This document shows positions 27,914 to 52,321 of a stretch of DNA of 64,000 bases, in pieces. Source of the stretch: Candidatus Doudnabacteria bacterium (GTDB lineage Bacteria > Patescibacteriota > Doudnabacteria > UBA920 > VMFF01); contig JAQBQP010000002.1 of the NCBI GenBank assembly GCA_028286905.1, positions 383,430 to 447,429 of the forward strand, in the 5' to 3' direction. A model generated the notes under the pieces. It was not told the origin of the DNA. It saw only the letters and a program-made list of their open reading frames with translations, and made no database searches. The position numbers were made by a program, and so were the translations under genes. How positions within the stretch are numbered: position 1 is the stretch's first letter; every line of letters begins with the position of its first letter.

Positions 27914-27988
27914 TGCCCGGTAGCCAAGTGGTAAGGCAGGGGCCTTTGAAGCCTCCATTCGCAGGTTCGATCCCTGCCCGGGCAGCCA
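27914..27988 (+). tRNA. tRNA-Gln (anticodon UUG)
   Basis: Cloverleaf TGCCCGG/CCGGGCA acceptor, anticodon arm GGGGC-CTTTGAA-GCCTC, T-arm GCAGG-TTCGATC-CCTGC, discriminator G, encoded CCA. Confidence 0.85.
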
Positions 27989-28021
27989 GACCAAACACGT
28001 TTCCCCGCTGACCTAGCGGGG
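27983..28021 (+). repeat. att-like direct repeat, copy 1, overlapping the last 6 nt of tRNA-Gln
   Basis: CAGCCAGACCAAACACGTTTCCCCGCTGACCTAGCGGGG; matches 50272-50309 with one indel. Confidence 0.8.
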
Positions 28022-28066
28022 TGAGTAAAAACAGTTAATAATATTTTAATAATGGAAAGTTATAAT

Positions 28067-29173: not shown

Positions 29174-30851
29174 AACAGAAAAACTTAAGATGACTTTTAC
29201 ACCCAATACCATTGAGCATTTGGGTGTACGGATGTACTCTACGCTACCTCCTGTTATAGCTGAGCTTATCGCTAATGCTCAGGATGCTGACGCTACTGGA
29301 GTTAAAATACACCTGAGCGATACTGCAGATAAAGAAATCGTCATCTCAGACGATGGTCACGGAATGTCGTTTGAAGATATAAATAGCAAATTTTTACGTA
29401 TTGGACGTAATCGCCGCAATGAAGAAGGTGGACAGACCTCACCAGGCGGTAGAAAAGTTATTGGTAAAAAAGGATTGGGTAAACTATCCTTTTTTGGTAT
29501 TGCTCATGAAATAGAGGTCCGCACCACACAAGATCACAAAAGGAACTCCTTTGTTATGCGATGGGAAGACATTCTTTCTGACGATGACCAAAGTAAACAA
29601 AAAGATTACTCTCCAGAGATTTTGGAAAAGGATGTAAAATCTTCCGATAAAGCTGGTACGACTATAATTTTAAGAAAAATAGAACGCGTTAGCGACTTTG
29701 ATGCGAATTCTCTTGCAGACAAGCTATCAAAGTTTTTTATTATAGACCCTGATTTTAATATTTACGTAAAACATAATAATGAGAAAACAATTTTAATAGA
29801 AAACGACCGTAAATATTCCAATCTTACCAAAGAAGTTGAATGGCAAGTACCTGCAGATATTGATTTAGAGTCAGATTACGAAAAACAATCAGAAATTAGA
29901 GGACACCTAATTGCTGCTGAAAAGCCAATTCCTCCTGCAACCAATATGAAAGGCATTACATTATTTTCACGCAAAAAACTAGTAAATAGTCCAGAATACT
30001 TCTCAGACAGTACTTCAAGCCATTTTTTTACGTACTTAACTGGTTGGCTTGAAGTAGATTTTATAGATGATCTTGGGGAAGATGTGATCGGCACCAACCG
30101 TCAATCTCTAAATTGGGAACATCCTGATATGGTGGCATTACGAGAATATTTACAAAAAATGTTACGTTGGCTAGAAACCGACTGGCGTAAAAAAAGAGCA
30201 AAAATAAAAGAAAAGAAATTTGATGAAGGAACAGGTTTAAAAATTGGTGAATGGAGGGAGCATATCCCAAAAAATATAAACGATAATTTGGATCCTATCA
30301 TAAACGCCTTAACACAAGATGCAGAGTTACCCGATAATGAAGCCATCGCGAGCTTGAAAGGTTTGCAAAATATAATTAAACCTTATCCTTATTTTCATTG
30401 GCAAAACCTACATCCCACTCTTCATAACTTAGTCTTTCCTTTTTACAAAAGTGAAGATTATTACAGAGCTGTCTCGGAAGGTGTAATCAAATATGTGAGA
30501 GAAATACAAAAAAAATCTACCAGCGGATTAAATGACTCCGCGTTAATTAAATTTGCCTTTGCCCCTGACCAGCCTCCACCTCCTGCCCCACAAGCTAATC
30601 CCGAATTATCTGTTACCAAAAAGTTTAAAAGACCTAACGGAACCAACTTCGAAAATGATACAATCTCAAACATTCGTAGGGGCCATGGTCTTCTTGCACA
30701 TGCCATGTGGTTAGCTTTTAGAAATCCTATCCACCATGAACTAACTTCTGATTTAAAAGATTCTGGGCTTTATACAGAACAAGATTGTTTAGATGCTTTA
30801 GGACTTCTTTCTCATCTTTTTAGACGTTTGGAAAACTCTGAGCTGACCTAA
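29166..30851 (+). CDS. GHKL (HATPase_c / MORC-like) ATPase with a C-terminal HEPN-like domain
   Basis: 561 aa. Bergerat-fold motifs are ELIANAQDA (N box), DDGHGM (G1) and GKKGLGKLS (G2). The C-terminal roughly 120 aa is all-alpha and carries RGHGLLAH and FRNPIHHE (Rx4-6H) motifs. The ATG at 29166 overlaps the methyltransferase stop (ATGAATAA), so the two genes are translationally coupled. Confidence 0.8.
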   Translation: MNKTEKLKMTFTPNTIEHLGVRMYSTLPPVIAELIANAQDADATGVKIHLSDTADKEIVISDDGHGMSFEDINSKFLRIGRNRRNEEGGQTSPGGRKVIGKKGLGKLSFFGIAHEIEVRTTQDHKRNSFVMRWEDILSDDDQSKQKDYSPEILEKDVKSSDKAGTTIILRKIERVSDFDANSLADKLSKFFIIDPDFNIYVKHNNEKTILIENDRKYSNLTKEVEWQVPADIDLESDYEKQSEIRGHLIAAEKPIPPATNMKGITLFSRKKLVNSPEYFSDSTSSHFFTYLTGWLEVDFIDDLGEDVIGTNRQSLNWEHPDMVALREYLQKMLRWLETDWRKKRAKIKEKKFDEGTGLKIGEWREHIPKNINDNLDPIINALTQDAELPDNEAIASLKGLQNIIKPYPYFHWQNLHPTLHNLVFPFYKSEDYYRAVSEGVIKYVREIQKKSTSGLNDSALIKFAFAPDQPPPPAPQANPELSVTKKFKRPNGTNFENDTISNIRRGHGLLAHAMWLAFRNPIHHELTSDLKDSGLYTEQDCLDALGLLSHLFRRLENSELT

Positions 30852-31559: not shown

Positions 31560-32882
31560 CTACAAATTTTCCGCTATTGTAACACTGTTGTTTTCTACCT
31601 TTATTCGACCTTTTAACAAAGTTAGCAAGCTGCGCTTTTCATCATTGCTCCCATCCCTCAATATGTATTTTGCATAAGCTCTGGTATCTATACTATCTTG
31701 ATCTAAAGGTTTGTCAGTTAACTTTAGAATGTCCTTTCTAAATTTATTGTATCTAGCAATCTCTTCTTGAAATTTATGCCGTACTCCAAGTTCGTTAATA
31801 TCTATAATGTCTATTATCTTTAACAGACCGATAATAAGATTATCTTCTCTTATATATTTGTTATGGCATATAGCGCGTTTTCCTCTGGTGCAGCCATAGT
31901 AGATATAATGCGAAACGTTACCGTCTTTTAATTGTTTAAATTTTTCTTCCGCGGTAATTCCAGATCCACAAAGACCACAGATCATAAGTCTAGTAAATGC
32001 GAACTCTCTAGTTTGCCTTGGGGCATTATCTCTCTTCATCTGTTCTTGGGTAGCAAAAAACAGATCTTTAGATATTAAAGGTTCCTGTCTTCCAGAATAA
32101 AAATTACCACTCCCCTTTGGATACTCTAAAGTTCCGTAGTAGAAATGGTTTTGTAATATATTGTATACGTTTGAAAGAGATAAGTGCTTTCCATGGATTG
32201 ACCTAAAGTTTAATTCATCTTTTAACCAATGGTGAATTCTTCTGCCGCTTAATCCTTGGTTTGCATACCTTTCAAATATTTGTTTTATAACTCCTGCCCT
32301 ATCTGGGTCGATATTAACCTCGCATTTGTGATCTATTCTTTTTTCGTTTAAGTATCCGGTTGGCGCAGTTGCTGGCCACAATCCCATTTCAACTCTTGCT
32401 CTCATCCCTCTTTTTACATTTACACTCTTATTATCGTTTTCAAGCTTTGCTTGAGAACCCAGAATCATTAACAAAAATTTTTCATTCGGGTTATTTGTAA
32501 ACCTTTGGCTAAAAGTTCTAATTTCAACTAGCTTCTTTTGATCTAACAAATCTACAAGTGCTCCAAGGTCACCAGCATTTCTACTTAGTCTATCTGGGTG
32601 CCAGACAAGAATGCCACTGAACTTACCGCTTCTAATGTTTGTGAGAAGCTGGTTATATACCGGTCTTTGACCACAATCTTTGGCTGAGTGGGATTCCCTA
32701 TAAACCTCTGCCACAGTAAGGCCATTTCGGTCCGCTACGGCAAGCATTTCCTTTACCTGGGATTCTATTGAAAGTGCTTGCTTCTCCTCAGCTTCGCTCG
32801 ATTTTCGCGCATACAGGCAATACTGGATGGTATCAGCGACCAGTTCGGTTTGTGGGCTAATATATAAAGTCTTTTCTTGCAT
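31560..32882 (-). CDS. Large serine recombinase (resolvase/invertase catalytic domain, recombinase domain and zinc ribbon)
   Basis: N-terminal YARKSSEAEE catalytic-serine motif, recombinase domain, and zinc ribbon CGLCGS...YYGCTRGKRAICHN. The likely start is the Met at 32882 (MQEKTLYIS...) inside ORF 31560-33023. Confidence 0.88.
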   Translation of the reverse strand: MQEKTLYISPQTELVADTIQYCLYARKSSEAEEKQALSIESQVKEMLAVADRNGLTVAEVYRESHSAKDCGQRPVYNQLLTNIRSGKFSGILVWHPDRLSRNAGDLGALVDLLDQKKLVEIRTFSQRFTNNPNEKFLLMILGSQAKLENDNKSVNVKRGMRARVEMGLWPATAPTGYLNEKRIDHKCEVNIDPDRAGVIKQIFERYANQGLSGRRIHHWLKDELNFRSIHGKHLSLSNVYNILQNHFYYGTLEYPKGSGNFYSGRQEPLISKDLFFATQEQMKRDNAPRQTREFAFTRLMICGLCGSGITAEEKFKQLKDGNVSHYIYYGCTRGKRAICHNKYIREDNLIIGLLKIIDIIDINELGVRHKFQEEIARYNKFRKDILKLTDKPLDQDSIDTRAYAKYILRDGSNDEKRSLLTLLKGRIKVENNSVTIAENL

Positions 32883-32904
32883 ACACACATTAAGCCGCAC
32901 ACAA

Positions 32905-32944
32905 GGATATATAGCAAGCGGGGCTATAGTGGATAAATATAGAC
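32905..32944 (+). repeat. About 31 bp conserved site, copy 1 (TATATAGCAAGCGGGGCTATAGTGGATAAATAT), between the divergent recombinase and HEPN-like genes
   Basis: 29 of 31 positions identical to 41335-41370 on the same strand. Confidence 0.7.
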
Positions 32945-32986
32945 AAAAAACTCTCTGTTTTTGCTTATATTTGTTAAAATACTGCC

Positions 32987-33754
32987 ATGAAGATAAATCC
33001 ATATTTTCGGACAACGCTAGCAAAACCTTTCCAGGGTAAATTTTTACACGAAGCAGGTGCTGAGGTAATTCTAAATATTCCTATTAATTCAAAAACAATT
33101 GGAAACTTTATCATAATGCTTCCAGATCCAGTTTCTCTAAACTTAAATAATGCCCAAGCTTTTATAGATAAGTGGGTAAAACTAAAAGAACGCATCAATA
33201 AATCAAAAAACTTCACCGTTTACAGCAGCGCTCTTTCTGAGGATGACATATCGGGTAAAAGCCAAGAACAAATAAAACACTTGGATCCTAATGCAAATTT
33301 TTATAGAACCTTAGATGAGGAAAAAGTGTTTGAGTGTATACAAAGTAGTATAGGCGTGGTTATCTCCTTAATCACTGCTATGGAAGCCTTCGTTAATGTT
33401 GTCATTCCTCATGATTACATTTTGCAGAGGACTAATAAACGAAGTGAAAAAGAAAATCTAAATAAAGATTCTATTGTAAAAAAACTATCTATTTCGGAAA
33501 AGATAATTTTAATTGCAGATATAAAAGGCAAGGCGGACTTGAAAGAACAAGTATTCTGGTCAACTTTTCACGAAGTAAAAAAATTGAGAAATGATATTAT
33601 TCATTTCAAAAAAACTGACGCTAACATAAATAATATGTGGGCTCCTATAATTATCGGTTTCCTAGATTCCGATTTACAGAAATTTTTTGATCACTTCGTA
33701 ATTATGATTGATTATCTTCACTCTGGTTATTTAGATACTAAAACTAATATCTAG
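32987..33754 (+). CDS. HEPN-like (Abi-type) hypothetical protein
   Basis: 255 aa, predicted all-alpha, with an Rx4H motif KKLRNDIIHFK near the C-terminus; divergent from the recombinase. The start may instead be the internal Met at about 33114. Confidence 0.5.
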   Translation: MKINPYFRTTLAKPFQGKFLHEAGAEVILNIPINSKTIGNFIIMLPDPVSLNLNNAQAFIDKWVKLKERINKSKNFTVYSSALSEDDISGKSQEQIKHLDPNANFYRTLDEEKVFECIQSSIGVVISLITAMEAFVNVVIPHDYILQRTNKRSEKENLNKDSIVKKLSISEKIILIADIKGKADLKEQVFWSTFHEVKKLRNDIIHFKKTDANINNMWAPIIIGFLDSDLQKFFDHFVIMIDYLHSGYLDTKTNI

Positions 33755-33759
33755 GGTTT

Positions 33760-34230
33760 CTAATCTAAATAACCCCCGTGCTTATCTCTAAAATCTTTGG
33801 GAATTAATTTATCAGCGCTTCTTAAAGACCTGTAGTGATAGACTACACCCATCACTATAACCACTGTGGTTATAGTGATGGTGAGCATCAAACTTATCTT
33901 CAATGGATAAACTACAGCCAAAGCTTGTCCTATAAAACCTAAGATTAAAAAAGTAAAACCAAAGTAACTACTTAGACGTGTTTCATGTTCGGAAGCTTTT
34001 GCGTACGGGTTTTCATCAAAAAAAGTATCTGCTTTTAACTTACTTACTCTTGAAGAAGTAATAATGATGCTTTTTACCAACCAAAAAGATCCATACACGT
34101 CTAATATTAAGCCTAGGAATGATATAGAATATTGTTTAGATATAATTTGAACTAAAGTACTCATAGCGAATCGTCGATTATACGGGCCGTTCTTCTTCAC
34201 TGAGATCTTATATTTTTTTCTGATGTTCAA
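33760..34230 (-). CDS. Hypothetical membrane protein (3-4 transmembrane helices)
   Basis: 156 aa hydrophobic ORF with no recognisable motif. Confidence 0.45.
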   Translation of the reverse strand: MNIRKKYKISVKKNGPYNRRFAMSTLVQIISKQYSISFLGLILDVYGSFWLVKSIIITSSRVSKLKADTFFDENPYAKASEHETRLSSYFGFTFLILGFIGQALAVVYPLKISLMLTITITTVVIVMGVVYHYRSLRSADKLIPKDFRDKHGGYLD

Positions 34231-34479
34231 TCAGTTGATTGTTTAGCATAGTTTTTGTTAATCACCCTTGGATTGTTCGAAATCTAGCACAAAACCAGCG
34301 TGACCAACTATTTGGACAGCTTTCTCGTAAAATTCTATAGCTTTTGTGTTAAGAGCATATTTTATTCTGATGGCTAATTTCAAAGAATTCTCAAAGGTAA
34401 AATAAATACCAAATATTTTAGTTTGTATTTATTTTCTGTGCCTTGATCTTAGGACCCGCAACTGTTTCTACCAACACCA

Positions 34480-34794
34480 TTAATCAAGAGTATTTTTCTT
34501 CACAAATACACCTTCTATCCCATCGTACAACATGTGTAATTTGCCGTCATTAGTTAGTTTTATTTTGGTTCGCTCTTCTCTCGGAGCCGAAGGTTGATTG
34601 GTTACCAAATAATCTCCTTCTATTTGATAAGTTAGAAAAATATACTGATTTTTATCACCTTCTGACGTGGAGTAGGTCAATTTGCCATCTGCTTGAAAGT
34701 TCATTGTCACATCACCAAATTTATTATAGGCTTTCTTATTATCGCCATCCGGTGCTAGTACCCATATACCAATAATTTGTGTTTGTGTATCCAT
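34480..34794 (-). CDS. Small protein immediately downstream of RHS-1; candidate cognate immunity protein
   Basis: 104 aa; its ATG lies 1 nt after the RHS-1 stop; predicted soluble beta-rich protein. Confidence 0.55.
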   Translation of the reverse strand: MDTQTQIIGIWVLAPDGDNKKAYNKFGDVTMNFQADGKLTYSTSEGDKNQYIFLTYQIEGDYLVTNQPSAPREERTKIKLTNDGKLHMLYDGIEGVFVKKNTLD

Positions 34795-34795
34795 A

Positions 34796-37700
34796 TTATT
34801 TATCCTTATCTCTTATAACATTTACTATGTAATTTTGAAAAGTTTTTAAGTAGTAATCCTTAGCTCTTTGAGAGGGGGTATAGCGCGAATTTCCGGTTTT
34901 AGTTTCTACTCCACCTAAAAGATTTCCTTTTTGATCCTTAACTTCTATATCTATCACTCTCTTACCTAAGAAAGTATCTTTTGTAACTTCTTTTTGAACT
35001 AACCTACCATCATTTTGCAATTGATTAGCGACGGTATCTCTAAATGCATCTCCCTTTGCCTTGTTTAATAATACATTAGCCTGTGGTACTTCGCTAACTG
35101 TATTGCTTTCAGATTGTAAACGTTGCCACGCTGATATTCCTGCTACGGTAGGAATTGCTGCTAATATATCCACTACCGCCAATGGTGCATCACCCACAAT
35201 AGCCGGAGCTAGCGGATGATCCATTAACCAATGCGCGCTAGAACTAGAACTATACCAATTATTTGCGTTGTTTCCAACATTTATAACAGCACCGTTCCAA
35301 GCGGCAGCGATTGACCACCTACCTGTGGGGTCTCTAAATAACAATGGGTTATTCCTACCATAACTATAACTATTCAAGCTCTGGGGGTCAGCTAAATAAC
35401 TTTGAGTGTCACTTCCGATCATCGCCATGAGAAGGCTTGTATTTCCCAAGGCCAAAAATGCAGAATCTTCGCTTACAAATCTCCCTATGATCGAATCGTA
35501 ATATCTTGCATTCATATAGTTCAAACCACTATCAGTATCCAACTCAGATCCTGCGTACTGACGTTGATCGCCATACGAACCAGCCTTTTGGTCTATCCTT
35601 ACTGACCCGAACGGTAAATAGTCTAGTAGTTCTTCCTGAACATCAGATGAGTTGGTGGTTATATTAGACCCTGTTAGATTATCCGTAGCTGTGGAATGAA
35701 CAACAGCACTTACTCCTGTACCAGTTACAGTTGCGATCTCAACTCCATTGGCGAAAATATGTTTAGTTTTAATAGTACCATCTGTGTTATAGGAACTCGA
35801 CGGGTAAACAGTGGTTGAGGAGCCTTTTGTGTAAGTTACTCGCTGACCCGTTGGGTCATATTTAAAGGTAACTGTATTTGACCCAGCGACTGTTTGGGTA
35901 ATCCGATTATTATAATCCCAAGTATTTGTATAAGAGGTACCTTTGGTTAACATGTTCCCATTATTATCATAGGTCAATGTCGCAGAACCAATAGTTGTCG
36001 CGGCGTTAGGGTTTGCATAGTTGCTGCCAGTATTTCCTGCATATGTGTAAGAGCCCGGTCCCGTTTTGCTAGTAATATTCCCTATCGCATCATACGCATA
36101 ATTTTCTGTGTATGTTGATTGCCCAGATGCTACGCCAGTTGCCGTAGCTGAGGTTAAGCGATTTAAATCGTCATAGACATACGCAACAGTTTTACTAGAG
36201 TTGGTTCCGGAAGCATCTACGATCTGAGTAATGTTTCCATTATTATCATAAGTATAAGCCAAATCCTGTCCATGCACAGAACTTGCGATCGTCGTAACTT
36301 TATTAGTTAACCGGTAAAGCTTTGTAGCATCGTATGTGTTAGTTGTACTCATACCATTTGCATACGTTGCCGTAGTAACTTGCTCTACCGGGGAATAATC
36401 ATAATTTGAAACCACATTGATAAAACTGGCATCTGTAGATTCTTTTCTTTGCACAGAATTAAGCAGTCCTCCTGTATTAAAGACGTACTGTATCTGTGAA
36501 GAATCAGGATTTGTAATTGTCAGTTGGTTACCCTGGCGATCATAGGTATCGCTAGTAAGATAGGTTGTCGAATTAATAACTTTACTTTCACTCTTTAATC
36601 CCCCGTTCGGGTTATATGTATTTGTTTGGGTAACACTTGCACTCGTAGTACCAGTTAGATGACCCTTACCATCTGTTCCTGAGTCATATGTATTAGTTAC
36701 TTCTGTTCCCGCAGCTCCTGTATAGTCCTCTGTTAGCTGACGGTTGATGTCATCATAGGTATAGTTAACGGTCTGACTCTTCGGATCTACAACCTGGGTT
36801 ATATTTCCCGTATCGTCGTAGGTATACGCCCAACTTCCGTAGGTCGAATCAGCTGACGCGTGTAGGTCTTGCGCAGTTAATCGCCTACCTAAACCATCAT
36901 AAGTAAAGTTTCTCACATTGCTCAATGCATCGGTAATGTTTGTAAGATTATTATTAAGATTCCAAGTGTACGTAGTTGTATAGGTTGAAGCAGAATTGTT
37001 TTCTTCTACCTTTATCAAATTACCATAAGCGTCCTTGTATAGATTTTTTGTCTTACTACGTGGGTCGGTAATAGTAACTTTAAAGCCAAAATAACTATTA
37101 CTTGTTGTTCCAACATTATTTTGCTGAGTTAAGATTCGATCTAAAGGATCGTAAGTATAAGTTATAAATAGACTCGTAGTACTAGTTGGCGAGGTCTTAC
37201 TTGAACCGCTGCTTGCATATGGCAAGGATTCTTGCGACAAGCGACCCGCTGTATCATATACATAATCCTTGGTCGTAAATGATCCTGATGTTTCAGTTTC
37301 TTTGCGCGTCTGTAACAATCGACCTCGACCATCGAAATACTGGTATGTATCGACTCCGTTACTACCGTCTAGATAATCTGTGCGTTGAACAGAAAGAGCT
37401 CCAGAAGTATCCGTATAAACATAAGTAGTCTTAGTCACGGAAGAACCACTAGAAGGATCGGGCATCTTCTCTTCAATCAAGCGACCAAATCCATCATAAT
37501 TTGTTGTCCAAACTCTGCTATTTGGATCCGTCATTGTTGCAACCTTGCCATTCAAGTAATTGTAAGTGTAAGTAGTTGCTTGAGTTAATGGGTTTGTAAC
37601 AGTTGCTGGATAAAGATTATTAATGTCATAAGCATAGGTCGTCACTTTACCTCGTGGATCTGTGGAGGTAGCGACGGTACCATTTGAGTTGTATGTTTTT

Positions 37701-40700
37701 TGAGAATTTATATAAGTAGCGCCTGTTTTCCACTGTTCAATTTTTGTTAGATTACCAACACTAACAGAGCCATAGGCAAGGGTATCAAAGTAATATTTAG
37801 ATTCGTTAACTTTTGCTGCAGATGTATCTGTAACGGTAATATCCTTTGGCACAGTTACGTTAGTTGTGCTATTTGTTGCATAGGCATAAGTTGTAACCTT
37901 TTTATCAGAACCCATGTCTGTAAATGTCCCATCCGTAGCGCCTGTGACCTGACCCCAATCCGTTTGAGTAGCTAAAGTACCATCTGCATTATTATAGGTG
38001 TACTCTGTGGCAGTATCAGTATGGGTAGAGGTTCCATCGTATTGCTCTACAACATCTTTTAATTTTCTTACGAAATCTCTGCCTGTAGCAATATTGTATT
38101 TATCCCATATATCAATCGAACGATTATACAGATTATTAGATAAATCAAAGCGTTCCGATCGATACGCTAAACCAATTTTAGAAACATCATCGTTAGCTTC
38201 GTAGCTTGCTGAGTCATTTGAATCGCCTTGATGATAATAAGTAACTGTTTTACCTGAGGGGTCTGTTGCGGTTACAGTTTGAAAACCGGCAAATTTCTTT
38301 CCTGTATCCAAAGAGTAATAATTTCTGCCATTTACATAATCGTATTGAGTTACTTCATTTGAACCTACGTCAGGAACTACGGTCATTTGCTGAACAACAA
38401 GTTTGGTTTCTCCAATGGTATTGGGTTCATCTTGTTTGCCAATAATAGCAACTTGCTTATAATCGACATTCGTAGTTACACCTCTATTTGAGATAGAACT
38501 AATTAGATCGCTTTTTTTGCCTTGAGTAATATAACCCTTGCTATCTAAAGAACCATAGTTATATATATAATCTATAGCTATGCCGTCAGCATATAAATAA
38601 TCAATTACACCATCGCCATTCAAATCGTATGGCCTAGCGCGATCACCATAGCGAGCCGAAAATTTATCAGATGGAATAATGTAAGTTGACGCTGTATCTT
38701 GTATTAAATTAGTTCCAGTATTTTTATATACATTGGAGTCAATGATGTCGGGTAAATTATCAGCATTAGCATCTATAATTCTTGAAGGGCCGTCAGTTGT
38801 TTCATTGCTTGCCAAAGTATTAGCTACAAAAGCAAATGTTCTATGATCACCGTTTGGACCTGTATATAAATCAGGCATCGCCCAATCAGTTGAAGGTGTA
38901 TTACGATACCATCCATGCCCATTATTAATGTAAACAGCAGTGTCTGTATTCGTAGCTGGAACTCCGCCCGAACCCCTAATTGCATCTGCCAAAACAATAT
39001 CAACTAATCCGTCGTTATTTATATCGCTATACTGAAAATCATTAGAACCATTATCTATATTAGGTATCTCAAAACAAGGGTCATAGACCCAACCACTTCC
39101 TGTATTTCTGAAGTAACCTCCGCGAGCTTGCCCAGAACAGACACTAGCTGCCTCTATATTAGGATCAATAATATCTGGTAGACCATCGCCGTTAACATCT
39201 ATTAAATCAGCGTGAAAATTAATTGGCGCTACATTAGATACATTGTTCGGAGCTGAGTAACTAGTAAAAGAACTAGGATATGTTGGTAAACGCCATCCCG
39301 TGGGAGTACTCCAACCTGTCCCTGTATTTATAAATACAGTAGCATTTTTCTCATAACAGCTGGTTCCAGAATTATCCATACATCCCGTTGCGTATACCAC
39401 GTCCATCAAACCATCCCCATTAACATCAGAAAAACGTACAGGATTACCAGTAACACCACCAGAAGCCACAATTTGCTCAAATCTAATAGTAGACGCTGGA
39501 CCCGAACTTGGAGTATATACATTAGGAAGTTGCCAAGCTGAATCATAAGCCCAGCCATGGGTATTATTAATAAATACAGCCGCAGTATTCCAATAACAAC
39601 TGGTAACGGCTCCAATACAACCCCCTCCGGTCACGACATCTTGTAACCCATCGCCATTTAAATCCACAAACTTAGTAGAAGCCGGTTGGATTATAAAGGT
39701 ATAATCACTTCCATTATTACTGTAGAGGGTAGGAAAGTCTGTAGAAGAAGCGTAAGACCACCCAGAGCCACTATTGTTCTGAAGTTGCGGTGGAATATCC
39801 GAAGGGCCACCTTTCCAAGCTAAATATTTACTTCCGTCGCTATTGATTATGTCCGGCAAACCATCATCATTGGCATCTAAGACATCCGTGTATGTATTAG
39901 TTCCGTAACTAGGAAAATTTAAAGTAGGAGGGGTACGTGATGCCCCAGACCATGTATTTTGAAAAGTTGGAAGCTGCCAATTTGCAAGACTATTGGTTCC
40001 TTGCGCCGCTGCTTGATATGAGAAAGTAATCGCCGGCTGCGATACTTCTGATCCTGAAGTTGGATCTTTTGCTTTTTGGGTTATAGAAGAAAGTAGCGAT
40101 CTGTATCCGTTTACTCCCGTAGTGTAAGCAAGCGCAACGCGACTCTGCCATACTGAGCTTATCTTTGTTTCAATCAAATTTATTCGGTAATTAGTTGAGA
40201 CAGCAAATCCAGCGAAGTACTTGTTAAACCCACCTGTAGAAGATTCTCTTGAAAAATCTATTTCATAAATAGATCCATATGTTATTGCACTAGGATATAT
40301 CTGCCCCGCGTCTTTGTAATACGTATAATTGATGGTGTTTCCATTTGCATCAGTAACACTAGTTAAATACCATCTGAAAATATGAGTGCTGTCACTTGGG
40401 TCATCTTGACGAGTTGCTGCACTGCTCCCAAAAACATAAACAGTCCCTGACTTATCTGTTACTGTCCACGCACTGCTTGAGAAATCGTATTTTCTAAAAT
40501 CTCCTCGCTCTACTTTGGCAGCATAGGAATTACCAGAAATAAAGGTTAAATCATCATCAAGGGAAGAATAATAATCTTTATAGGTACTGTTATATAAATC
40601 TCCGCTTCCATGTTTATTTTCTCTCTCAATGTAAGGTATGTCTAAGCTCCAACCATAGCCAACAATCGAATCATCTCGTAAGTTTTGACTATTATAAGAA

Positions 40701-41245
40701 ATGTTAATACTTGGTGTGAGATTATTCCTGCCTGGAGGAACAACTACCGGATAAGAATAATGCAGAGCTCCCGTGTTACCTAAAACAGATGCCTTTTGAT
40801 TTGATAAGGCCTGCTGTGAATAAACAAGTTTTTGGTCTCCTGTTTCCCCTCCTGTGCTACCTACTCCAGAAGCGTTAGAAACTATTCCACCGGAAGTAGT
40901 TTTAGGAGTTTTCGTTTTAACCTTAGTGCCATTTTTAGCTTCTTCTTTTTCAATTTCTTTTTCTTGTCTCGCGGACACTTCCTGTTCATAAGGAGATTTA
41001 ATCGCGCCTCCCTGAGTAGGGTCATCGTACCCAGAGCTAGTAGACGTATCAGGTGGAATAGATGTAGGGGTAGTAGATAAAGAAGTACTACTGGTGGAGG
41101 AATCCGCTGTGGGCGTAGCAGAACTATCCACAGTGCTAGCTGCTGGTTCATCAGCAAAAACTGGAGCTAGTGGAGTTAAAACAAATAAAAAAGCTAACAG
41201 CACACCTGTTAACTTGCGAACAAAAGCTCCACGAAAAATTTTCAT
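34796..41245 (-). CDS. Giant RHS/YD-repeat polymorphic toxin-like secreted protein (RHS-1)
   Basis: 2149 aa with a signal peptide, a Thr/Ser/Pro-rich linker, FG-GAP/VCBS-like DxNGDGxxD repeats, long YD repeats and the RHS core ending at DPTGRW (DPxG autoproteolysis motif). A divergent roughly 190 aa C-terminal tip containing ...GKRVIDIEVKD... follows. Confidence 0.9.
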   Translation of the reverse strand: MKIFRGAFVRKLTGVLLAFLFVLTPLAPVFADEPAASTVDSSATPTADSSTSSTSLSTTPTSIPPDTSTSSGYDDPTQGGAIKSPYEQEVSARQEKEIEKEEAKNGTKVKTKTPKTTSGGIVSNASGVGSTGGETGDQKLVYSQQALSNQKASVLGNTGALHYSYPVVVPPGRNNLTPSINISYNSQNLRDDSIVGYGWSLDIPYIERENKHGSGDLYNSTYKDYYSSLDDDLTFISGNSYAAKVERGDFRKYDFSSSAWTVTDKSGTVYVFGSSAATRQDDPSDSTHIFRWYLTSVTDANGNTINYTYYKDAGQIYPSAITYGSIYEIDFSRESSTGGFNKYFAGFAVSTNYRINLIETKISSVWQSRVALAYTTGVNGYRSLLSSITQKAKDPTSGSEVSQPAITFSYQAAAQGTNSLANWQLPTFQNTWSGASRTPPTLNFPSYGTNTYTDVLDANDDGLPDIINSDGSKYLAWKGGPSDIPPQLQNNSGSGWSYASSTDFPTLYSNNGSDYTFIIQPASTKFVDLNGDGLQDVVTGGGCIGAVTSCYWNTAAVFINNTHGWAYDSAWQLPNVYTPSSGPASTIRFEQIVASGGVTGNPVRFSDVNGDGLMDVVYATGCMDNSGTSCYEKNATVFINTGTGWSTPTGWRLPTYPSSFTSYSAPNNVSNVAPINFHADLIDVNGDGLPDIIDPNIEAASVCSGQARGGYFRNTGSGWVYDPCFEIPNIDNGSNDFQYSDINNDGLVDIVLADAIRGSGGVPATNTDTAVYINNGHGWYRNTPSTDWAMPDLYTGPNGDHRTFAFVANTLASNETTDGPSRIIDANADNLPDIIDSNVYKNTGTNLIQDTASTYIIPSDKFSARYGDRARPYDLNGDGVIDYLYADGIAIDYIYNYGSLDSKGYITQGKKSDLISSISNRGVTTNVDYKQVAIIGKQDEPNTIGETKLVVQQMTVVPDVGSNEVTQYDYVNGRNYYSLDTGKKFAGFQTVTATDPSGKTVTYYHQGDSNDSASYEANDDVSKIGLAYRSERFDLSNNLYNRSIDIWDKYNIATGRDFVRKLKDVVEQYDGTSTHTDTATEYTYNNADGTLATQTDWGQVTGATDGTFTDMGSDKKVTTYAYATNSTTNVTVPKDITVTDTSAAKVNESKYYFDTLAYGSVSVGNLTKIEQWKTGATYINSQKTYNSNGTVATSTDPRGKVTTYAYDINNLYPATVTNPLTQATTYTYNYLNGKVATMTDPNSRVWTTNYDGFGRLIEEKMPDPSSGSSVTKTTYVYTDTSGALSVQRTDYLDGSNGVDTYQYFDGRGRLLQTRKETETSGSFTTKDYVYDTAGRLSQESLPYASSGSSKTSPTSTTSLFITYTYDPLDRILTQQNNVGTTSNSYFGFKVTITDPRSKTKNLYKDAYGNLIKVEENNSASTYTTTYTWNLNNNLTNITDALSNVRNFTYDGLGRRLTAQDLHASADSTYGSWAYTYDDTGNITQVVDPKSQTVNYTYDDINRQLTEDYTGAAGTEVTNTYDSGTDGKGHLTGTTSASVTQTNTYNPNGGLKSESKVINSTTYLTSDTYDRQGNQLTITNPDSSQIQYVFNTGGLLNSVQRKESTDASFINVVSNYDYSPVEQVTTATYANGMSTTNTYDATKLYRLTNKVTTIASSVHGQDLAYTYDNNGNITQIVDASGTNSSKTVAYVYDDLNRLTSATATGVASGQSTYTENYAYDAIGNITSKTGPGSYTYAGNTGSNYANPNAATTIGSATLTYDNNGNMLTKGTSYTNTWDYNNRITQTVAGSNTVTFKYDPTGQRVTYTKGSSTTVYPSSSYNTDGTIKTKHIFANGVEIATVTGTGVSAVVHSTATDNLTGSNITTNSSDVQEELLDYLPFGSVRIDQKAGSYGDQRQYAGSELDTDSGLNYMNARYYDSIIGRFVSEDSAFLALGNTSLLMAMIGSDTQSYLADPQSLNSYSYGRNNPLLFRDPTGRWSIAAAWNGAVINVGNNANNWYSSSSSAHWLMDHPLAPAIVGDAPLAVVDILAAIPTVAGISAWQRLQSESNTVSEVPQANVLLNKAKGDAFRDTVANQLQNDGRLVQKEVTKDTFLGKRVIDIEVKDQKGNLLGGVETKTGNSRYTPSQRAKDYYLKTFQNYIVNVIRDKDK

Positions 41246-41334
41246 GTAAATTTATTTAATTGCTATTTCTTTAAAAATATACTCTTCGTAATTGCTTGTC
41301 AAAGAATTTAATAAATATTTAACAATTTCTTAAT

Positions 41335-41370
41335 ATCTATATAGCAAGTGGGTCTATAGTGGATAACTAT
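41335..41370 (+). repeat. About 31 bp conserved site, copy 2 (TATATAGCAAGTGGGTCTATAGTGGATAACTAT)
   Basis: Direct-orientation near-identical copy of 32905-32944, upstream of RHS-1 and of ORF 41400. Confidence 0.7.
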
Positions 41371-41399
41371 TAGGTTGAACAAAAGAATCCAATCAAAAC

Positions 41400-41741
41400 T
41401 TGGAAATCGGCAAAGAAGAAAAGGATGAAAATTTATTTTCACCCGACCCAACAGATGCCAATCTTGCATTGGCTTGGCTGAGGATTGAAGTTGAAAAAAG
41501 AATCCGTAAAATTGCTGAAATAAATGATGTAAAAGATACAAACCGAGGTGTTTCGCTTTTATTACACCAATTAGTTTTAAAAGGGTTTTTTGATGAAAGT
41601 ACGACTAGTGGCTTGGCTAATCTATTAAGTATTTTAAACGGTGTTCAGGCCATAACAAAAGGCAATCAATTGATAGGTATTCTGAATGCTAAAATACGTT
41701 TTGAAAGCAAGAAAAAGATTGCTGCAATAATTTCTGCTTGA
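41400..41741 (+). CDS. Hypothetical small ORF (TTG start, no in-frame ATG)
   Basis: 113 aa ORF between the two RHS genes on the opposite strand. It depends on a TTG start, and its upstream region carries copy 2 of the 31 bp site. Confidence 0.2.
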   Translation: MEIGKEEKDENLFSPDPTDANLALAWLRIEVEKRIRKIAEINDVKDTNRGVSLLLHQLVLKGFFDESTTSGLANLLSILNGVQAITKGNQLIGILNAKIRFESKKKIAAIISA

Positions 41742-41761: not shown

Positions 41762-42202
41762 TTAGATACCAGAAACAGTTGGGTATTCGTAAAGACTTTT
41801 AGCTATTCCATCATAATACTTTTTAAAGTATTTATTATCCCGTTCGATGTCCCATTCTTTTAAGTACGTGAAAAAACCAAATTCTCCTTGCTCACAAAGT
41901 TCCTTTACAGCACTCAACATGTTTTCCAGTGTTACCTTTTCCAAAACAATCATTCCAGGAGCAGCCTCAAATGGGTGATGGATATCGGCGTTGCGTTTTA
42001 AGGATAGCTCTAAATTATTAATATCATAAAATGTAACCTGGTAACACTTACCGTTTTGAAGCTCTACCAAAACAAACTGAATCCAACCGTTCTCTTTTAC
42101 CTCAGCGGCCATTCTATCATCAAAACCGCCATAAAATTTTAATTTTGGCCAAACGTCATTTTGATTTAAGGTCAGAGGATGGGGTAAATTTAAGTCCTTC
42201 AT
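41762..42202 (-). CDS. Small protein downstream of RHS-2; candidate cognate immunity protein
   Basis: 146 aa whose start overlaps the 3' end of RHS-2 by about 47 nt, the overlap typical of toxin-immunity pairs. Confidence 0.55.
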   Translation of the reverse strand: MKDLNLPHPLTLNQNDVWPKLKFYGGFDDRMAAEVKENGWIQFVLVELQNGKCYQVTFYDINNLELSLKRNADIHHPFEAAPGMIVLEKVTLENMLSAVKELCEQGEFGFFTYLKEWDIERDNKYFKKYYDGIAKSLYEYPTVSGI

Positions 42203-45200
42203 ATGGTTTGGTTTGTATCTTATTTAATGATTCTTGAAACTGTTTTGGGGTAAGGTTTACTCCCTTTTTTGGAACTATTGAGCCATGCCCATTACTACCC
42301 TGTAGAATTTCCAGTTGATCAGGAATACTAATTATTTGATTTGCTCCTCCATATTTTACAACATTTGCATTAGCTGGATCAATATTTACTGAAGGGCCTT
42401 GTGTTCTTCCTACATATCCTGTCTTTGGATCAACTGTAAAGTCTGCGCCCGCCCTACCAGTGAGATCAAAACTTCCACCTCCGCGGTAAAAGCCACCTTC
42501 AACAGATACATTACCTTCAGGAATTGGAATGCCATCAACTGAAATCATATCACCCATAAATATAAACTGCGGTTGATATTTCTTTGTCTGCGCATATTGT
42601 TGAGGCTCATAAACAGGATCGGCTTGCAATATTTTGGGTTGTAATAATCCGATAACTATAAGTGTAATAAGATCGTCAATACCGAAAAATTTTCCTGTTG
42701 GGTCTGTATATTTTAGAGGATTATTTCGAGCATAGCTATAACTATTTAGAGCTTGAGGGTCTGTTAGAAACACTAGCCCATCTTTATCCGTGTCTTTCTT
42801 GATGAGGCTTGGAGAGCCTACTTCCAGAAAGGCAGGATCTTCACTTTGAAATCTCCCGGTTGCTTGATCATAATATCTTGCATCCATATAAGTAAGCCCA
42901 GTGTCGGCATCAAATTCATGTCCGGCAAACTTACGTTGTTCACTAAATGTGCCTGCTTTTTCGTCTAATCTGGATGTACCAAATGGGTAATAATCCAACA
43001 ACTCGTCTTGCGCTCCAACAGCATTAAGCACAATATTACTACCCGTTAAATTATCAGTAACGGTATTGCGAGCGACTGCTGTAGTCCCAGTTCCTGAAAT
43101 TGTCGCCACATCCATACCGTTTGCAAAAATGTGTTTAGTTATATTTGTGCCGTCCGTATTATATAACTTGGTTGGGTAAGCTACAACAGTTGAACCATTT
43201 ACGTATTTTGCTCTTTCTCCATTTGCATCATAGGCATAAGCTATGGTTGTAGATCCAGCAACAGTTTGAGTGAGACGATTATTATAGTCCCAAGTATTTG
43301 TATAGGATGTTCCTTTAGTTAAGACATTTCCATTTCTGTCGTAAGTGAGTCCGACAGAACCTATTGCAGTTACTGCATGAGGATTCGCATACAAGGTTCC
43401 TGTATTACCTGAGTACGCATATGTTCCGGTGATATCAGATTTGGTTAGTAAATTACCGATCGCATCATAAGTGTAAGTTTCTGAATGGTTGTTACTGTTT
43501 ACTGCACTTGTGGTAGTCATCGAGGCCAAGCGATACAAGTCGTCATAGCCATAAGCTACATTCTTCTTTGTGTTAGTCGTAGAATTATCTACAATTGCAG
43601 TTATATTTCCAACGTTATCATAGGTATAAGAAACATCTTGGAATTTAGGATTAAAGTTTACTGTTGCGGTTCTGGTTGTAGAACCTGAACTATTACTTGC
43701 AGTTAACGTATAAGTAGTTGTCGTTGTTGGGCTTACAGATGTGGAGCCATGCCCAAACATGCCCCCAACGCCATTATCAATACTAAAGGTTGTCGGCGTA
43801 CCTCCTGAGACCGTCCAAGTTAACGTCGAACTATGCCCTGAACTAATATTTGCGGGCGTTGCTTGAAAAGTATTAATTACTGGTGCGATACTTGTGTTTC
43901 CTATAATCCAAGAGTAAATAGTGCCCCACCAATTGGTGGCAAAGAGCGTTGCAGTATTGGGATCAAATAATAATGCGTAGACTGAATTTCCGAAACTGGA
44001 ACCTGGAAGACCGGTACTCATTTCTGACCAATTTGTACCGCCGTCAGTTGAAGTTTGCACCCTAGCACCATTGAATACCGAATATAAAGTTGTGTGGCTT
44101 TGTGGACTTATTATCATTCCATCATGGGCAACAAAACCATTTAGATCGGTAATTTTGGTCCAAGTGCTTCCCGAGTTAGTAGTTTTATAAAGATGATTTT
44201 GATTTGACCAGGAATCCACTGATGCCACATATATTGTACTAGTACTGGTAGGGTCTATTACTAATGCTGTCATCTTTGTGGTGGAGTTCAAAGTGTAGGT
44301 AAACACACGAGACCAAGAAGTTCCAGAGTTCGTCGTCTTGATCACTCCAGTATTTACTGAAGCATATAATGTACTTGGAGTCGTGGGGTCTATAACTAAG
44401 TCGTAGGGCAAGTCATTTGTGACACCGCTTGGATCATACACTTTAGACCAAGAAGTTCCAGAGTTCGTCGTCTTATAAATTCCAGTAGTATCGTTAACAA
44501 CGTAAACCGTTCCGGATGTTGCAGGATCAACTACCAAGTCAATATAATTTTGACAACTACTAATTGTCAGTCCACTATTTATTTCAGACCATGTTGTTCC
44601 CGCATCTGTAGATTTATAGACACTGCCATGCGCCCAGCATGAAGAGTCCCAATCTGTAGCGGCATATACTGTATTGTGATTCAGTGGATCCACAGCGATT
44701 GAATTTACTAACCAACTTGAGGTGGAAGTAATTTGTGTCCACGTTGTGCCGCTGTCCGTCGACTTATAAATTCCATTCCATGTGCCAGAATATTCTATTG
44801 TTGAATTAGTTGGATCCATCACCAAGGCTTTTGCAACTTGAGGAGAACCCGAAACCCCAGACCAGCTTGTAGAGATAGTATTGACTGCAGGTGTCGTTGG
44901 TGGAGTACCTGCTGATGAAGTAGGTGTTGTCAATTTATTACTTAACCGGTATAGATGGGCGGCATCATAAGTATTTGCTGTTATGATACCGTTCGCGTAA
45001 TCTGTTTCAGAAATTTGTCCAGTTGGAGAATAATCAAAGTTTGTGACAACGTCCGAATAACTTGAATCCGTAGATTCTTTTCTTTGAACTTGATTTAATA
45101 GACCCGCAGAATTATAAATATATTTTACCTGTGAACTATCAGGGTTGGTAATAATTAACTGGTTACCTTGTCTGTCATATGTGTAATCAGTTTCGTAGCT

Positions 45201-48200
45201 ATTTCCACCAATTACTTTTATCTCAGATTTTAATCCACCTAAGGGATTATACGTATTCGTTTGAGTCACTGCACTTGTTGTCGAAGAATAGAGATGACCT
45301 TTGCCGTCTGTCCCCGTGTCATACACGTAGGTGTTTTCTGTTCCGGTTGCTCCGGTGTAATCTTCAGTGAGTACTCTATTTATATTATCAAAGGTGTAAT
45401 TTGTAGTCTGACTTAAAGCGTCTACCTTCTGAGTTAAATTACCTGCGTCATCATAAACGTAAGCCCAGGTGCCATAAGTAGCATCGGCAGAAGCGTGAAG
45501 ATCTTGAGCAGTTAGATTTCTACCTAAACCATCGTAGGTAAAATTACGAACATTTCCAGAAGCATCGGTAATCTTTAATAGATCACCTAAGAAATCATAA
45601 ACATAATACGTACTATAGGTGCTACCGCTATTATGCTCATCGACCTGAATTAGGTTTCCATAAGCATTTTTATAGAAATCTTTGACTTTAGAATTTGCAT
45701 CATTTACAGTCAGTTTCCAGTCGTTATATGTGTTTGTGGTGGTACCTGCAGCATTTACAGAAGTTGTGATTCTATTCATTGGATCGTATGAGTAGACAGT
45801 ATAAAGTGCTGTGGTAATGGTTGGAGAAGTTTTAGTTGTTCCTATTGAGAAATATGGCAGAGATTCTTTATACAAGTTTCCCCTGCTGTCATATACATAA
45901 TCTTTTACCGAGAAATTACTGCCCTCTGCTTCTGTTCTTTCCTGTAATTTTCTACCTAGACCATCAAAATAGGTATAAACATCAACTGTTGTTGAAGAAT
46001 CTAGATAATTTGAAATCAAAGTCTTCACAGCACCAGAAGTATCTGTATAGATAGTAGTGTTTTTTGTAACCAACGTCGAAGGAGTAATTAAGTCCGGTTG
46101 ATCTTGTTCAACCAAACGATCTAGCCCATCATAAACGTTTTTAAACACTCTAGTATTAGGATCGGTTGTTTGTAAAACCTGTCCTGATGAATAATCATAC
46201 GTATTCGTTGTGACTTGAGAAAGTGGATTTGTTACCGTTGTTGGATACAGATGATAGGTATCATAAGAATACGATGTTGTTTTTCCTCTTGGGTCTGTAT
46301 CTACTGTAACGATTCCATAGGTACCATCATAAGTTTTTTGAGTATTAACAAATGTCGTACTCACTTTCCACATTTCGTGTTTAGTCTGATTTCCTTTTGT
46401 AACTGCTCCAAAAGATTGGGTATCATAATAATACTTATCCTCTTTTACTTTTGTAGCACTATGATCTGTTACAGAAATGTCATCGGGTAAACCAATAACA
46501 TTAGCTCCGTCTGTGGCATAGGTGTACGCGGTTGTAAAATCGTCAGTTCCAATATCAACGTAAGAACCATCGTCACTGCCAGTAACTTCACCTAGTTCAG
46601 TTTTCTGAGACACGTTTCCTGTTGAATTGTTATATAGGTAAGTTCTTGCAACATCTCGGTGTGTACTATCTCCGTCGTATGTTGAAGTGACAGTGCGGGT
46701 CACCCTTACAAATTTCTTTCCGCCTGTTAGATTGTAGCTATCCCATCTATTAATAACCTTTGAGAACAAACTGCCACTAGAATTAGCGACGGTCATGCGA
46801 TACATTTTTCCAATTTTCCAGTACTCATCGCTATACTCACCATGTGTGGAGTCACTTCCATTGCCTTGGTGAAAATATGAAGTCATTACATTTCCTGACG
46901 GATCTGTTTTAGTGATTACTCCAAAGCCTGCAAATTTACGGGTAGTAAAATCTCCACTGTCGAAATAAAAAGACCCTAAAGAATTCGAATATGTGTCGGT
47001 ACCGGTTGTTCCTAAACCATCGTTAGAAGTAACTTGATAAACTGTTTGGATTACATAAGGAAGTTTTGGGTTCAATCCGTTATAGCCAGACAGTGCTGAA
47101 GACTTGTAAGTAAACGTACTAGACCCACCAAAAGGAAAAGTTGTACTAGATAGTAGGTCTGTTGCTGCACTGTTGTTTATATAAATAGAAGTATACCCAT
47201 CCGTAATATCTGCCATCCCATCCCCATTCAAGTCTAAAATATCCGCGCTTGAACCATACCCGTTTGTAAAAGAGAATGTTCCAGGAGTATTCCAGCTAGT
47301 AGTATTCGAGGTCCAACCGTTACCAGTATTCAAATATGTTGTTCTATAAATTGCTCCGTACCAATTTATAGATTGGATCAAATCTGGTAAACCATCCCCG
47401 TTGACGTCCGCAAATCTAACCCCCAGATCTGAAGGATAGTACCCACTCAGATAAGAAGTTGTTAGTGCGGGTGTATAATCGGTGCTTGAAGTCCAGGTTC
47501 CTTTACCATCACCTAGATATGCGCTTGTATTAAACGTTGTACCTGTCCAAGCCAATCTTATAATGTCTTCCAAGCCATCACCGTTTAAATCTAAGAATGT
47601 AGCGTTATCGCCGCTTATAACAGGGAAAGTCCAGCTAGAACCCACGTCGCTGGTCCATCCAGAACCTGTGTTTAAATAAACATGTGCTGCGATTGAACCT
47701 CCCGAAATTGTATTTGATTGAAATATATCTGGAAGACCGTCTCCGTTTAAATCCACTATTCTCGTGCCAAAATCTGACCATAAATACGTAAAATTAATTG
47801 GAGAAGTCCAAGCCGTAGTTACTGTCCACCCACTGCCATTATTTATGTATGTGGCAGCTGTAATCGTACCAGAACTGTCTTTGTTCGAATATATTAAATC
47901 AGCCAAGCCATCGCCGTTTACATCAATAGCGTGAACATTAAAATCAATGTTACTTCCGGCATTAAATGATTTAAACGGGGTAGGAGCGTTGTATGCGGAA
48001 GACGCCGTCCAAGTGCCACTACTATTATTTAAATATGTAGCACGATAGTCAGTTCCGTTTGAAGCGGTGAAAGAAGTGATAATATCAGGCAAACCATCAC
48101 CATTTATGTCTGCAAATAAAGATCTTCCATCGAACGAGGTGTCTGATGGAAAAGACCAACTAGAATTCTGTGTCCAACCAGACGAAGTTGTGGACGTGTA

Positions 48201-50271: not shown

Positions 50272-50309
50272 CAGCCAGACCAAACACGTTCCCCGCTGAC
50301 CTAGCGGGG
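50272..50309 (+). repeat. att-like direct repeat, copy 2
   Basis: CAGCCAGACCAAACACGTTCCCCGCTGACCTAGCGGGG, followed directly by the ATCGCC hairpin module. Confidence 0.8.
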
Positions 50310-50319
50310 TTAAAAAAAT

Positions 50320-50980: not shown

Positions 50981-51012
50981 GTTCCAACTTCGTCCCATGT
51001 CCGCGGCCAATT
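50981..51012 (+). repeat. Cassette-junction motif copy M1 (GTTCCAACTTCGTCCCATGTCCGCGGCCAATTGA)
   Basis: One of nine same-orientation copies of a roughly 33 bp intergenic motif. Confidence 0.75.
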
Positions 51013-51093
51013 GACAAATACCATTAAATATGGTATTTTTTTATATTCAAGTTAAATTGGAGGATAACCCTTTCATCACAATGGAGTTTCGAC

Positions 51094-51588: not shown

Positions 51589-51611
51589 AGCAACGCTTCA
51601 ATGCGTGCAGA

Positions 51612-51645: not shown

Positions 51646-51664
51646 TAAATTTTTTACAATTGTC

Positions 51665-52307: not shown

Positions 52308-52321
52308 CCTCGTTAACTTCT

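Follow-up and report, generated by a model that had tools for sequence, protein, structure and literature searches.

We analysed a window of 64,000 nucleotides from Candidatus Doudnabacteria (contig JAQBQP010000002.1, positions 383,430 to 447,429) in which a 33-bp sequence occurs twice in the same orientation, once upstream of the gene for a large serine recombinase (LSR) and once 8.4 kb away, upstream of the toxin gene RHS-1. On balance, the first copy (copy 1) appears to be the native control region of the LSR gene, and the second (copy 2) a duplicate of it stranded at a rearrangement junction. The LSR is best read as the integrase of a whole 22.3-kb island, whose att sites would be the 40-bp repeats at the 3′ end of a tRNA-Gln gene.

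When 240 nt around each copy were aligned, the similarity covered 33 bp, with 30 identical positions, and ended sharply; no similarity extended into the flanks. Copy 1 (32908..32940; TATATAGCAAGCGGGGCTATAGTGGATAAATAT on the plus strand, ATATTTATCCACTATAGCCCCGCTTGCTATATA on the minus strand) spans positions −58 to −26 from the LSR start codon. It is placed 26 nt ahead of the LSR ATG (32882, minus strand); on the other side, the ATG of a gene encoding a 255-aa protein (32987, plus strand) is 46 nt away. Copy 2 (41338..41370; TATATAGCAAGTGGGTCTATAGTGGATAACTAT on the plus strand, ATAGTTATCCACTATAGACCCACTTGCTATATA on the minus strand) is located between the start of RHS-1 (41245, minus strand) and an open reading frame (ORF) at 41400. 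Its distance from the RHS-1 ATG, on the upstream side, is 93–125 nt, and it precedes the −35 hexamer of RHS-1 by 36 nt. The initial annotation had recognized the near-identical repeat, its two same-strand copies and their placement between these genes, all of which our alignment confirms. It had described 31 nt with 29 matches starting at 32905 and 41335; the repeat is in fact 33 nt with 30 matches, and the copies start 3 nt later, at 32908 and 41338. The consensus proposed at that stage has two matches in the window, compared to 0 expected from 100 dinucleotide shuffles. No third, degenerate copy was detected in the 64-kb window, where the next-best ungapped match (21 of 33 positions) is equal to the maxima of shuffled sequence (20–22). 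No match to GCAAGNGGGNCTATAGTGGATAA was found in species genomes or viral contigs, nor to AAGNGGGNCTATAGTGGATAA in metagenome contigs. Moreover, the 33-mer is absent from 80 loci encoding LSR homologues and from the loci of homologues of the 255-aa gene, even when 9–10 mismatches are allowed.

Several other identities of the repeat were considered and rejected. A structured RNA, a CRISPR repeat or a tRNA fragment was dismissed, as Rfam covariance models gave only noise-level matches around both copies (E ≥ 5) and ARAGORN called no tRNA there. A likeness to the D-arm of tRNA-Gln seen by eye was discarded as unsupported. A consensus promoter lying inside the repeat was sought on both strands with a scan requiring at least 9 of 12 hexamer matches, a spacing of 16–18 nt and a −10 hexamer with A at position 2 and T at position 6; none was called, TGCTATATA on the minus strand lacking the final T. 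Base composition shows no step at either copy.

In minus-strand orientation, the 33-mer is made up of 4 nt, a conserved box (TTATCCAC, hereafter box 1), an 11-nt gap, the hexamer TTGCTA and a further 4 nt (ATAT-TTATCCAC-TATAGCCCCGC-TTGCTA-TATA in copy 1). In copy 1, box 1 (32929..32936, minus strand) occupies positions −54 to −47 from the LSR ATG, which agrees with its position in homologues. TTGCTA (32912..32917, minus strand) follows 11 nt later at −35 to −30, where it would serve as a −35-like element. Outside the repeat, a spacer of 13 nt leads to the hexamer CTTAAT (32889..32894, minus strand), which is 17 nt from TTGCTA and is followed 6 nt later by the LSR ATG; by positional analogy with the family, this hexamer is the putative LSR −10 element. 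Copy 1 would then represent the upstream half of the LSR promoter and control region, with a regulator box placed one helical turn before the −35 element, and the promoter would have a short leader or none at all. In a MAFFT alignment (A6), TTATCCACT forms an invariant block with five loci that encode LSR homologues (L035, L036, L041, L059 and L060). This alignment and the positions of the elements lead us to describe the repeat as box 1 plus the −35-like element with 4-nt flanks. All three mismatches between the copies fall outside box 1 and TTGCTA.

Box 1 is conserved upstream of LSR genes. Relatives of the LSR number 451 in species genomes, and the best 80, mostly from Patescibacteria, are 56–64% identical to it; the closest relatives reach 64% identity in both the species-genome and the metagenome collections. 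The upstream regions of 80 homologues from species genomes, and of a second set of 67 from metagenome loci, were compared with background windows of 120 nt. Box 1 (TTAYCNAC type) is present in 52 of the 80 and 51 of the 67 regions, versus 7.4% of background windows. A second motif, box 2 (T[AG]GACT), is found in 67/80 and 59/67, versus 2.4% of background. The two occur together in 46/80 and 43/67 regions, compared to 0.3% of background windows. Typical positions are −53 to −58 or −65 to −70 for box 1 and −34 to −39 for box 2, with a gap of either 8–11 or 19–21 nt between them, two classes that are one helical turn apart. Many family members read TAGACT-N16-TATGTT-N7-ATG, in which TAGACT and TATGTT would constitute a −35/−10 pair followed by a very short leader or by none. 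MAFFT sets the TTGCTA of the window against the TAGACT or TGGACT of the family, although TTGCTA itself does not fit the box 2 pattern. As counted in 81 genome loci, the module of box 1 and box 2 is found almost exclusively at the LSR gene. The LSR upstream region is seldom duplicated: among about 148 loci, this is seen only in the window and in locus L039. Such rarity is more in keeping with a one-off rearrangement than with a built-in mechanism.

Copy 2 carries box 1 (41359..41366, minus strand), which together with its 5′ neighbours reads AGTTATCCACT, and TTGCTA (41342..41347, minus strand, as read from the sequence); no −10-like hexamer lies 16–18 nt downstream of this TTGCTA. On its other side, the frame of the ORF at 41400 (41379..41741, plus strand) opens just after copy 2. 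It contains no methionine, and in-frame stops occur inside and just after copy 2. A word-based search with this ORF returned only the ORF itself, and HMMER found 31 relatives of about 190–220 aa, which it matches only over their C-terminal ~120 residues. According to the alignment, about 95 N-terminal residues are missing, and an internal deletion has removed 12 residues that cover a conserved A.HG motif. The ORF is a decayed gene, a pseudogene remnant whose truncation point is at the outer edge of copy 2. Its relatives form a family of about 205 aa (P0029–P0059) with a hydrophobic N-terminal half and a C-terminal half containing LRIEIEKRLRKLA...LN.A.HG; no member has a Pfam match. No homology was found between the 255-aa gene and the 41400 ORF when a larger duplication was tested for.

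Copy 2 would thus be a second promoter fragment, devoid of a −10 element and of a recombinase gene, that abuts a decayed gene and the RHS-1 promoter. It probably arose by one of two routes. A related second LSR module, brought in by tandem integration or by recombination between elements, could have lost its recombinase gene and core promoter; or the promoter fragment could have been duplicated as the RHS-1 block entered beside the LSR gene. The two halves of the island are alike in layout (site, plus-strand ORF, immunity ORFs, RHS gene), which is compatible with two related units side by side. The analysis directly establishes the 33-bp repeat, the repeats linked to the tRNA gene, the conservation of box 1 among LSR homologues and the truncated state of the 41400 ORF. 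We infer the −35/−10 assignment, the binding of a regulator to box 1 and the origin of copy 2, which might still bind the same regulator as copy 1.

A number of observations weigh against this account of the two copies. Applied to 32700–33100, the consensus sigma-70 scan described above called no promoter, and near copy 2 it called only the separate promoter of RHS-1 (41302–41274). The hexamers are weak, TTGCTA matching 4 of 6 consensus positions and CTTAAT lacking A at position 2, and the window has no canonical box 2 of the family. Box 1 was picked out post hoc, from data that had already been inspected, and the regulator that would bind it is hypothetical. Copy 2 is 91% identical to copy 1 while RHS-1 and RHS-2 are only about 50% identical at the amino-acid level. 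Had copy 2 been without function since the RHS genes duplicated, it should have decayed, so it is either recent or constrained, and a function is conceivable. In addition, the repeats flank a discrete cargo beside the LSR gene, a topology also seen in L039, and this is how a capture or excision site would be expected to look. Finally, the search for further copies covered 64 kb of the genome, on a contig that measures at least 540 kb.

The strongest alternative is a shared operator, which we retain as a working possibility while considering it rather unlikely. Both copies would bind one regulator through box 1, coupling RHS-1, or a transcript upstream of it, to integrase expression; if true, this would tie toxin production to the state of the island. 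The two copies are indeed oriented alike relative to the downstream minus-strand gene (LSR or RHS-1), and box 1 and TTGCTA are identical in both. The copy 2 form of box 1, AGTTATCCACT, is the one found in homologues L035, L041, L059 and L060, and is therefore nearer to the homologues than the copy 1 form, ATTTATCCACT. The repeat has also kept its 91% identity whereas the RHS paralogues have diverged to 45–58%. However, a combinatorial calculation gives a chance of about 18% that three mismatches avoid the 14 of 33 positions occupied by box 1 and TTGCTA. Box 1 of copy 2 lies 56 nt from the RHS-1 −35 hexamer, outside both gap classes of the family, and the TTGCTA of copy 2 is without a partner −10 element. 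Moreover, RHS-2 uses the same core promoter as RHS-1 (TTGACA-17-TATTTT, 41302–41274, minus strand) and has no 33-bp site upstream. The near-confinement of the module to the LSR gene, and the rarity of its duplication, also speak against a shared operator.

The idea of a shared operator-promoter had been put forward in the initial annotation for the two plus-strand genes that adjoin the copies. It was right in kind, in that the repeat appears to be a promoter element, but this element belongs to the minus-strand LSR gene. Neither plus-strand gene requires the repeat: the 255-aa gene has an extended −10 promoter of its own (TGTTAAAAT, 32972–32980, plus strand), and the 41400 ORF is a truncated remnant without ATG. 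The promoter of the 255-aa gene, of the form TGnTAnnnT, starts at −15, ends 6 nt before the ATG and lies 31 nt downstream of copy 1; the same motif is common to six other genes of the window.

The sites at which the LSR would act are located elsewhere. The LSR gene (31560..32882, minus strand) encodes 440 aa with Resolvase, Recombinase and Zn_ribbon_recom domains, and is convergent with a tRNA-Gln(ttg) gene (27914..27988, plus strand) situated 3.6 kb past the LSR stop codon. The last nucleotides of this tRNA and the hairpin that follows it form a direct repeat (attL side, 27983..28022, plus strand) whose counterpart (attR side, 50272..50310, plus strand) marks the far end of the 22.3-kb island; over 40 nt, the two are 97.5% identical. 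From the attL to the attR side, the island carries a C5 methyltransferase, a GHKL ATPase with a Hypoth_Ymh domain, a LOOT RNA, the LSR, copy 1, the 255-aa gene, two small ORFs, RHS-1, copy 2, the 41400 ORF, an immunity-like ORF, RHS-2 and a 243-aa protein with a terminase-small-like helix-turn-helix. RHS-1 (34796..41245, minus strand) encodes 2149 aa and is followed downstream by an immunity-like ORF (34480–34794); its paralogue RHS-2 (42156..49424, minus strand) encodes 2422 aa and shares 45–58% amino-acid identity with it. The LSR is the only recombinase found on the island, where no other recombinase domain, no LSR fragment or relic and no internal att copy was detected; the rest of the window is free of LSR fragments as well. 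A similarity between the 33-mer and the att repeats was considered and rejected, as it amounts to a 7-nt match (AGCGGGG/CCCCGCT), which is at chance level.

The association with tRNA genes extends to the whole family. It was counted in loci L002–L081 and L093–L172, about 160 in all. Within 4 kb of 81 LSR genes from species genomes, 52 tRNAs are downstream and convergent, 2 are on the same strand and none is upstream. The first convergent tRNA is most often tRNA-Gln (24) or tRNA-Ser (14), and ten of these tRNAs are only 115–185 nt from the LSR stop codon. The second set, 80 metagenome LSR loci, gave 39 convergent tRNAs but no same-strand and no upstream tRNA. Sequences repeating the tRNA 3′ end were found 7–11 kb upstream in L032, L055 and L067, and the direct repeats at the tRNA sites of the family measure 18–40 bp. 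It is this linkage, together with the tRNA 3′-end repeats and the lack of any other recombinase on the island, that leads us to regard the LSR as the integrase of the whole island. A 2020 survey describes serine integrases as having been "not known for targeting tRNA genes"; it recorded tRNA use in 14 of 297 serine-integrase elements and asked for this to be proven by experiment (Mageeney et al. 2020, PMC7192596). A systematically tRNA-linked LSR clade is noteworthy because tRNA targeting by serine integrases has been deemed unproven (PMC7192596).

In the Logan assembly of SRR13312974, the sequence is broken inside the tRNA-Gln gene, one contig ending at about 27960 and the next starting at about 27931. 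Either a mixed population or a tRNA sequence that other organisms also have could account for this break. Defence-type cargo occupies the interval from the LSR to the tRNA. In the window (28127–30851) it contains the C5 methyltransferase and the GHKL ATPase fused to Hypoth_Ymh, and in L039 (11289–12936) an Abi_alpha-like protein and a Hypoth_Ymh protein. Homologues of the methyltransferase are present in 9 of 80 LSR loci. The LOOT RNA (Rfam RF03000; 31415..31532, minus strand) is full length and scores 75.7 bits against a gathering score of 46.4. It is encoded on the same strand as the LSR, 28 nt past the LSR stop codon, and overlaps the start of a 216-aa ORF. With a model built from six matches, LOOT was found in 25 of 84 related loci (L003, L004, L005, L008, L010, L011, L016, L020, L025, L030–L032, L041, L043, L045, L054, L055, L057, L060, L066, L069–L071, L079 and L088), mostly upstream of the LSR gene and no more than a few kb from it; four loci have it in divergent orientation at a distance of about 150–350 nt. 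LOOT RNA appears to travel on these serine-integrase elements. A complementarity between LOOT RNA and the 33-bp repeat was discarded, as it does not exceed 6 nt by eye.

The 33-bp repeats had initially been proposed as recombinase target sites allowing excision of the 8.4-kb segment between them. In this form, the repeats would be crossover sites of the adjacent LSR, used for excision or for an earlier capture of the segment, which holds the 255-aa gene, the immunity genes and RHS-1, in the manner of SCC-type cassettes or of an attI-like capture site beside an integrase gene; we consider this improbable. Its appeal lies in the topology: direct repeats bracket a discrete cargo block next to the 5′ end of the LSR gene, the outer edge of copy 2 is the truncation point of a gene, and the family does form long direct repeats (18–40 bp) at its tRNA sites. 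A second case is provided by L039, where a 72-bp direct repeat (about 92% identity; 6418–6490 and 9837–9910) of the upstream region of a tRNA-Gln-linked LSR gene surrounds a 3.4-kb block. That block encodes an ABC transporter (ATPase, permease and binding protein) and a TrmB-type regulator, and the distal copy follows an AbiEii gene; homology of the two upstream genes in L039 was considered and rejected on comparison.

However, the att sites of the family are tRNA 3′-end repeats, found here at tRNA-Gln, and the 33-mer is unlike either of them. The LSR gene (31560–32882) is outside the bracketed segment (32941–41337), and near-identical direct repeats are not what is expected of the attL and attR sites of a large serine integrase. 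The sole dyad of the 33-mer, TATAGC-N7-GCTATA, whose 6-bp arms are separated by 7 nt, is not perfect in copy 2, and its odd-length spacer makes it a poor fit to a 2-bp staggered cut on the dyad axis. The repeat boundary is at −26 in the window versus about −48 in L039, and of about 148 loci only 2 have repeats of this kind. Moreover, one independent assembly, a Logan contig, is unbroken through both copies. Exact protein matches to the LSR and to both flanking genes were found only in contigs of SRR13312974, among which there is no deletion or empty-site variant, and the motif is absent from the genome, viral and metagenome collections, with no empty or circular junction recorded.

A related idea is that the promoter-proximal region of the LSR gene doubles as a secondary capture or excision site, much as attI does in integrons, for an 8.4-kb RHS toxin-immunity cassette. 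If so, the integrase would move this cassette independently of the 22-kb island, and the L039 repeat would be a second example; we hold this to be very doubtful. The initial view that the RHS loci reside on DNA that a recombinase can mobilize does hold, provided that the unit is taken to be the 22-kb tRNA-Gln island and not the 8.4-kb segment.

Least probable of all, and very improbable in our view, is that TTATCCAC acts in both copies as a DnaA box that ties integrase expression or element replication to the host initiator. The known DnaA box is a 9-mer, TTATCCACA, with conserved T4, C6, A7, C8 and A9; the window copies match 8 of its 9 positions, and in some homologues (L046, L061) box 1 is tandemly repeated with an 11-nt period. 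However, most variants of box 1 in the family differ from the DnaA box at positions 4 and 6, and the commonest, TTACCAAC (25 occurrences) and TTATCAAC (9 occurrences), deviate at positions that are essential in known boxes. TTATCCAC occurs 5 times in the window compared to about 2 expected, which is no clear excess, and no origin-like features were found nearby.

The island and the repeat can be compared with several known systems. Like tRNA islands of the Islander/TIGER type, the island (27983–50310) starts at the 3′ end of a tRNA gene, ends with a 40-bp copy of it, and contains one integrase and its cargo (the C5 methyltransferase, the GHKL ATPase/Hypoth_Ymh protein and two RHS loci). Unlike in those islands, the integrase is a large serine recombinase and not a tyrosine integrase. 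The res site of Tn3-family elements, which lies between divergent tnpA and tnpR genes and is both a recombination site and an operator, resembles copy 1 in that the latter is located in a short divergent region and overlaps the presumed LSR promoter. However, res is about 120 bp long, has three dyad-symmetric subsites and is used by a small resolvase acting on two identical res sites within a cointegrate, whereas the window repeat is 33 bp with one weak dyad and is associated with a large serine integrase whose sites are elsewhere. A res-type site was rejected on the basis of the 33-bp extent of the similarity, the presence of a 6-bp dyad only, and an enzyme with Recombinase and Zn-ribbon domains.

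SCCmec-type cassettes, which are moved by Ccr recombinases, likewise combine short direct repeats around a cargo block with a large serine recombinase. In SCC elements, the repeats (15–30 bp class) come from the 3′ end of rlmH, which is the chromosomal target, and the element itself contains the ccr genes; in the window, by contrast, the repeat comes from the LSR promoter region and the recombinase is outside the bracketed block. Finally, duplicated or "propagated" promoter segments are known upstream of non-homologous genes within one genome. The repeat is similar to these: it is short and non-coding, has promoter-type content and sharp ends, and precedes two genes that are unrelated. It differs in that it duplicates only the upstream half of a promoter (box 1 and the −35-like element) and is present in only two copies. 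By comparison with such segments, copy 2, at the junction with a truncated gene, may be a relic and not a recruited promoter.

The 255-aa protein (32987..33754, plus strand), termed HEPN-like in the initial annotation, contains an RNDIIH motif and matches phrog_17113, with no Pfam match. An identical protein is encoded by a Candidatus Doudnabacteria MAG (Patescibacteria). Its homologues are found directly after a tRNA-Ser gene (L084, 8651–8830; L087, 9795–10000) or after a degenerate tRNA 3′ end (L082, about 9800–10000), and a sequence that these loci have in common, TTGACAACCTGTTAGTAAC, comes after the tRNA. An LSR gene is close to the homologue in L082/L083 and in L087, where the homologue is located between the tRNA and the LSR; unlike in these loci, the 255-aa gene of the window is on the other side of the LSR. 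The TGnTAnnnT motif of its promoter occurs exactly 15 nt before the ATG of several genes, often after a T run. Examples are 24526–25380 (minus strand) and 32972–32980, and promoters of this form also lie upstream of 52455, 59668, 61561 and 63419. This placement suggests that the host uses extended −10 promoters and leaderless mRNAs.

Beyond the island, eight copies of a 32-nt repeat, TTCCAACTTCGTCCCATGTCCGCAGCCAATAC (69–100% identity), are present at 50982–62161, each after a small gene. Several are followed by a hairpin terminator and a TTTTTTGTTAnnnT promoter (families D1 and D3–D5). The region looks like an array of small-gene units with a conserved intergenic element between them. At 57709–57749, two perfectly matching 20-nt arms (ACCGCGGTATACTTCGACAA / TTGTCGAAGTATACCGCGGT) form an inverted repeat around a single central nucleotide.

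The reading of an excisable RHS cassette is thus replaced by a plainer one, in which a piece of the recombinase promoter region has been duplicated and its second copy lies at a scar. Both RHS toxin loci of this Candidatus Doudnabacteria genome are carried on a 22-kb island at tRNA-Gln. The island recombinase is a member of a large and coherent clade of serine integrases encoded beside tRNA-Gln and tRNA-Ser genes across Patescibacteria. This clade supplies many natural tRNA-linked serine integrases, in which the promoter module is conserved and a LOOT RNA is often present as well.

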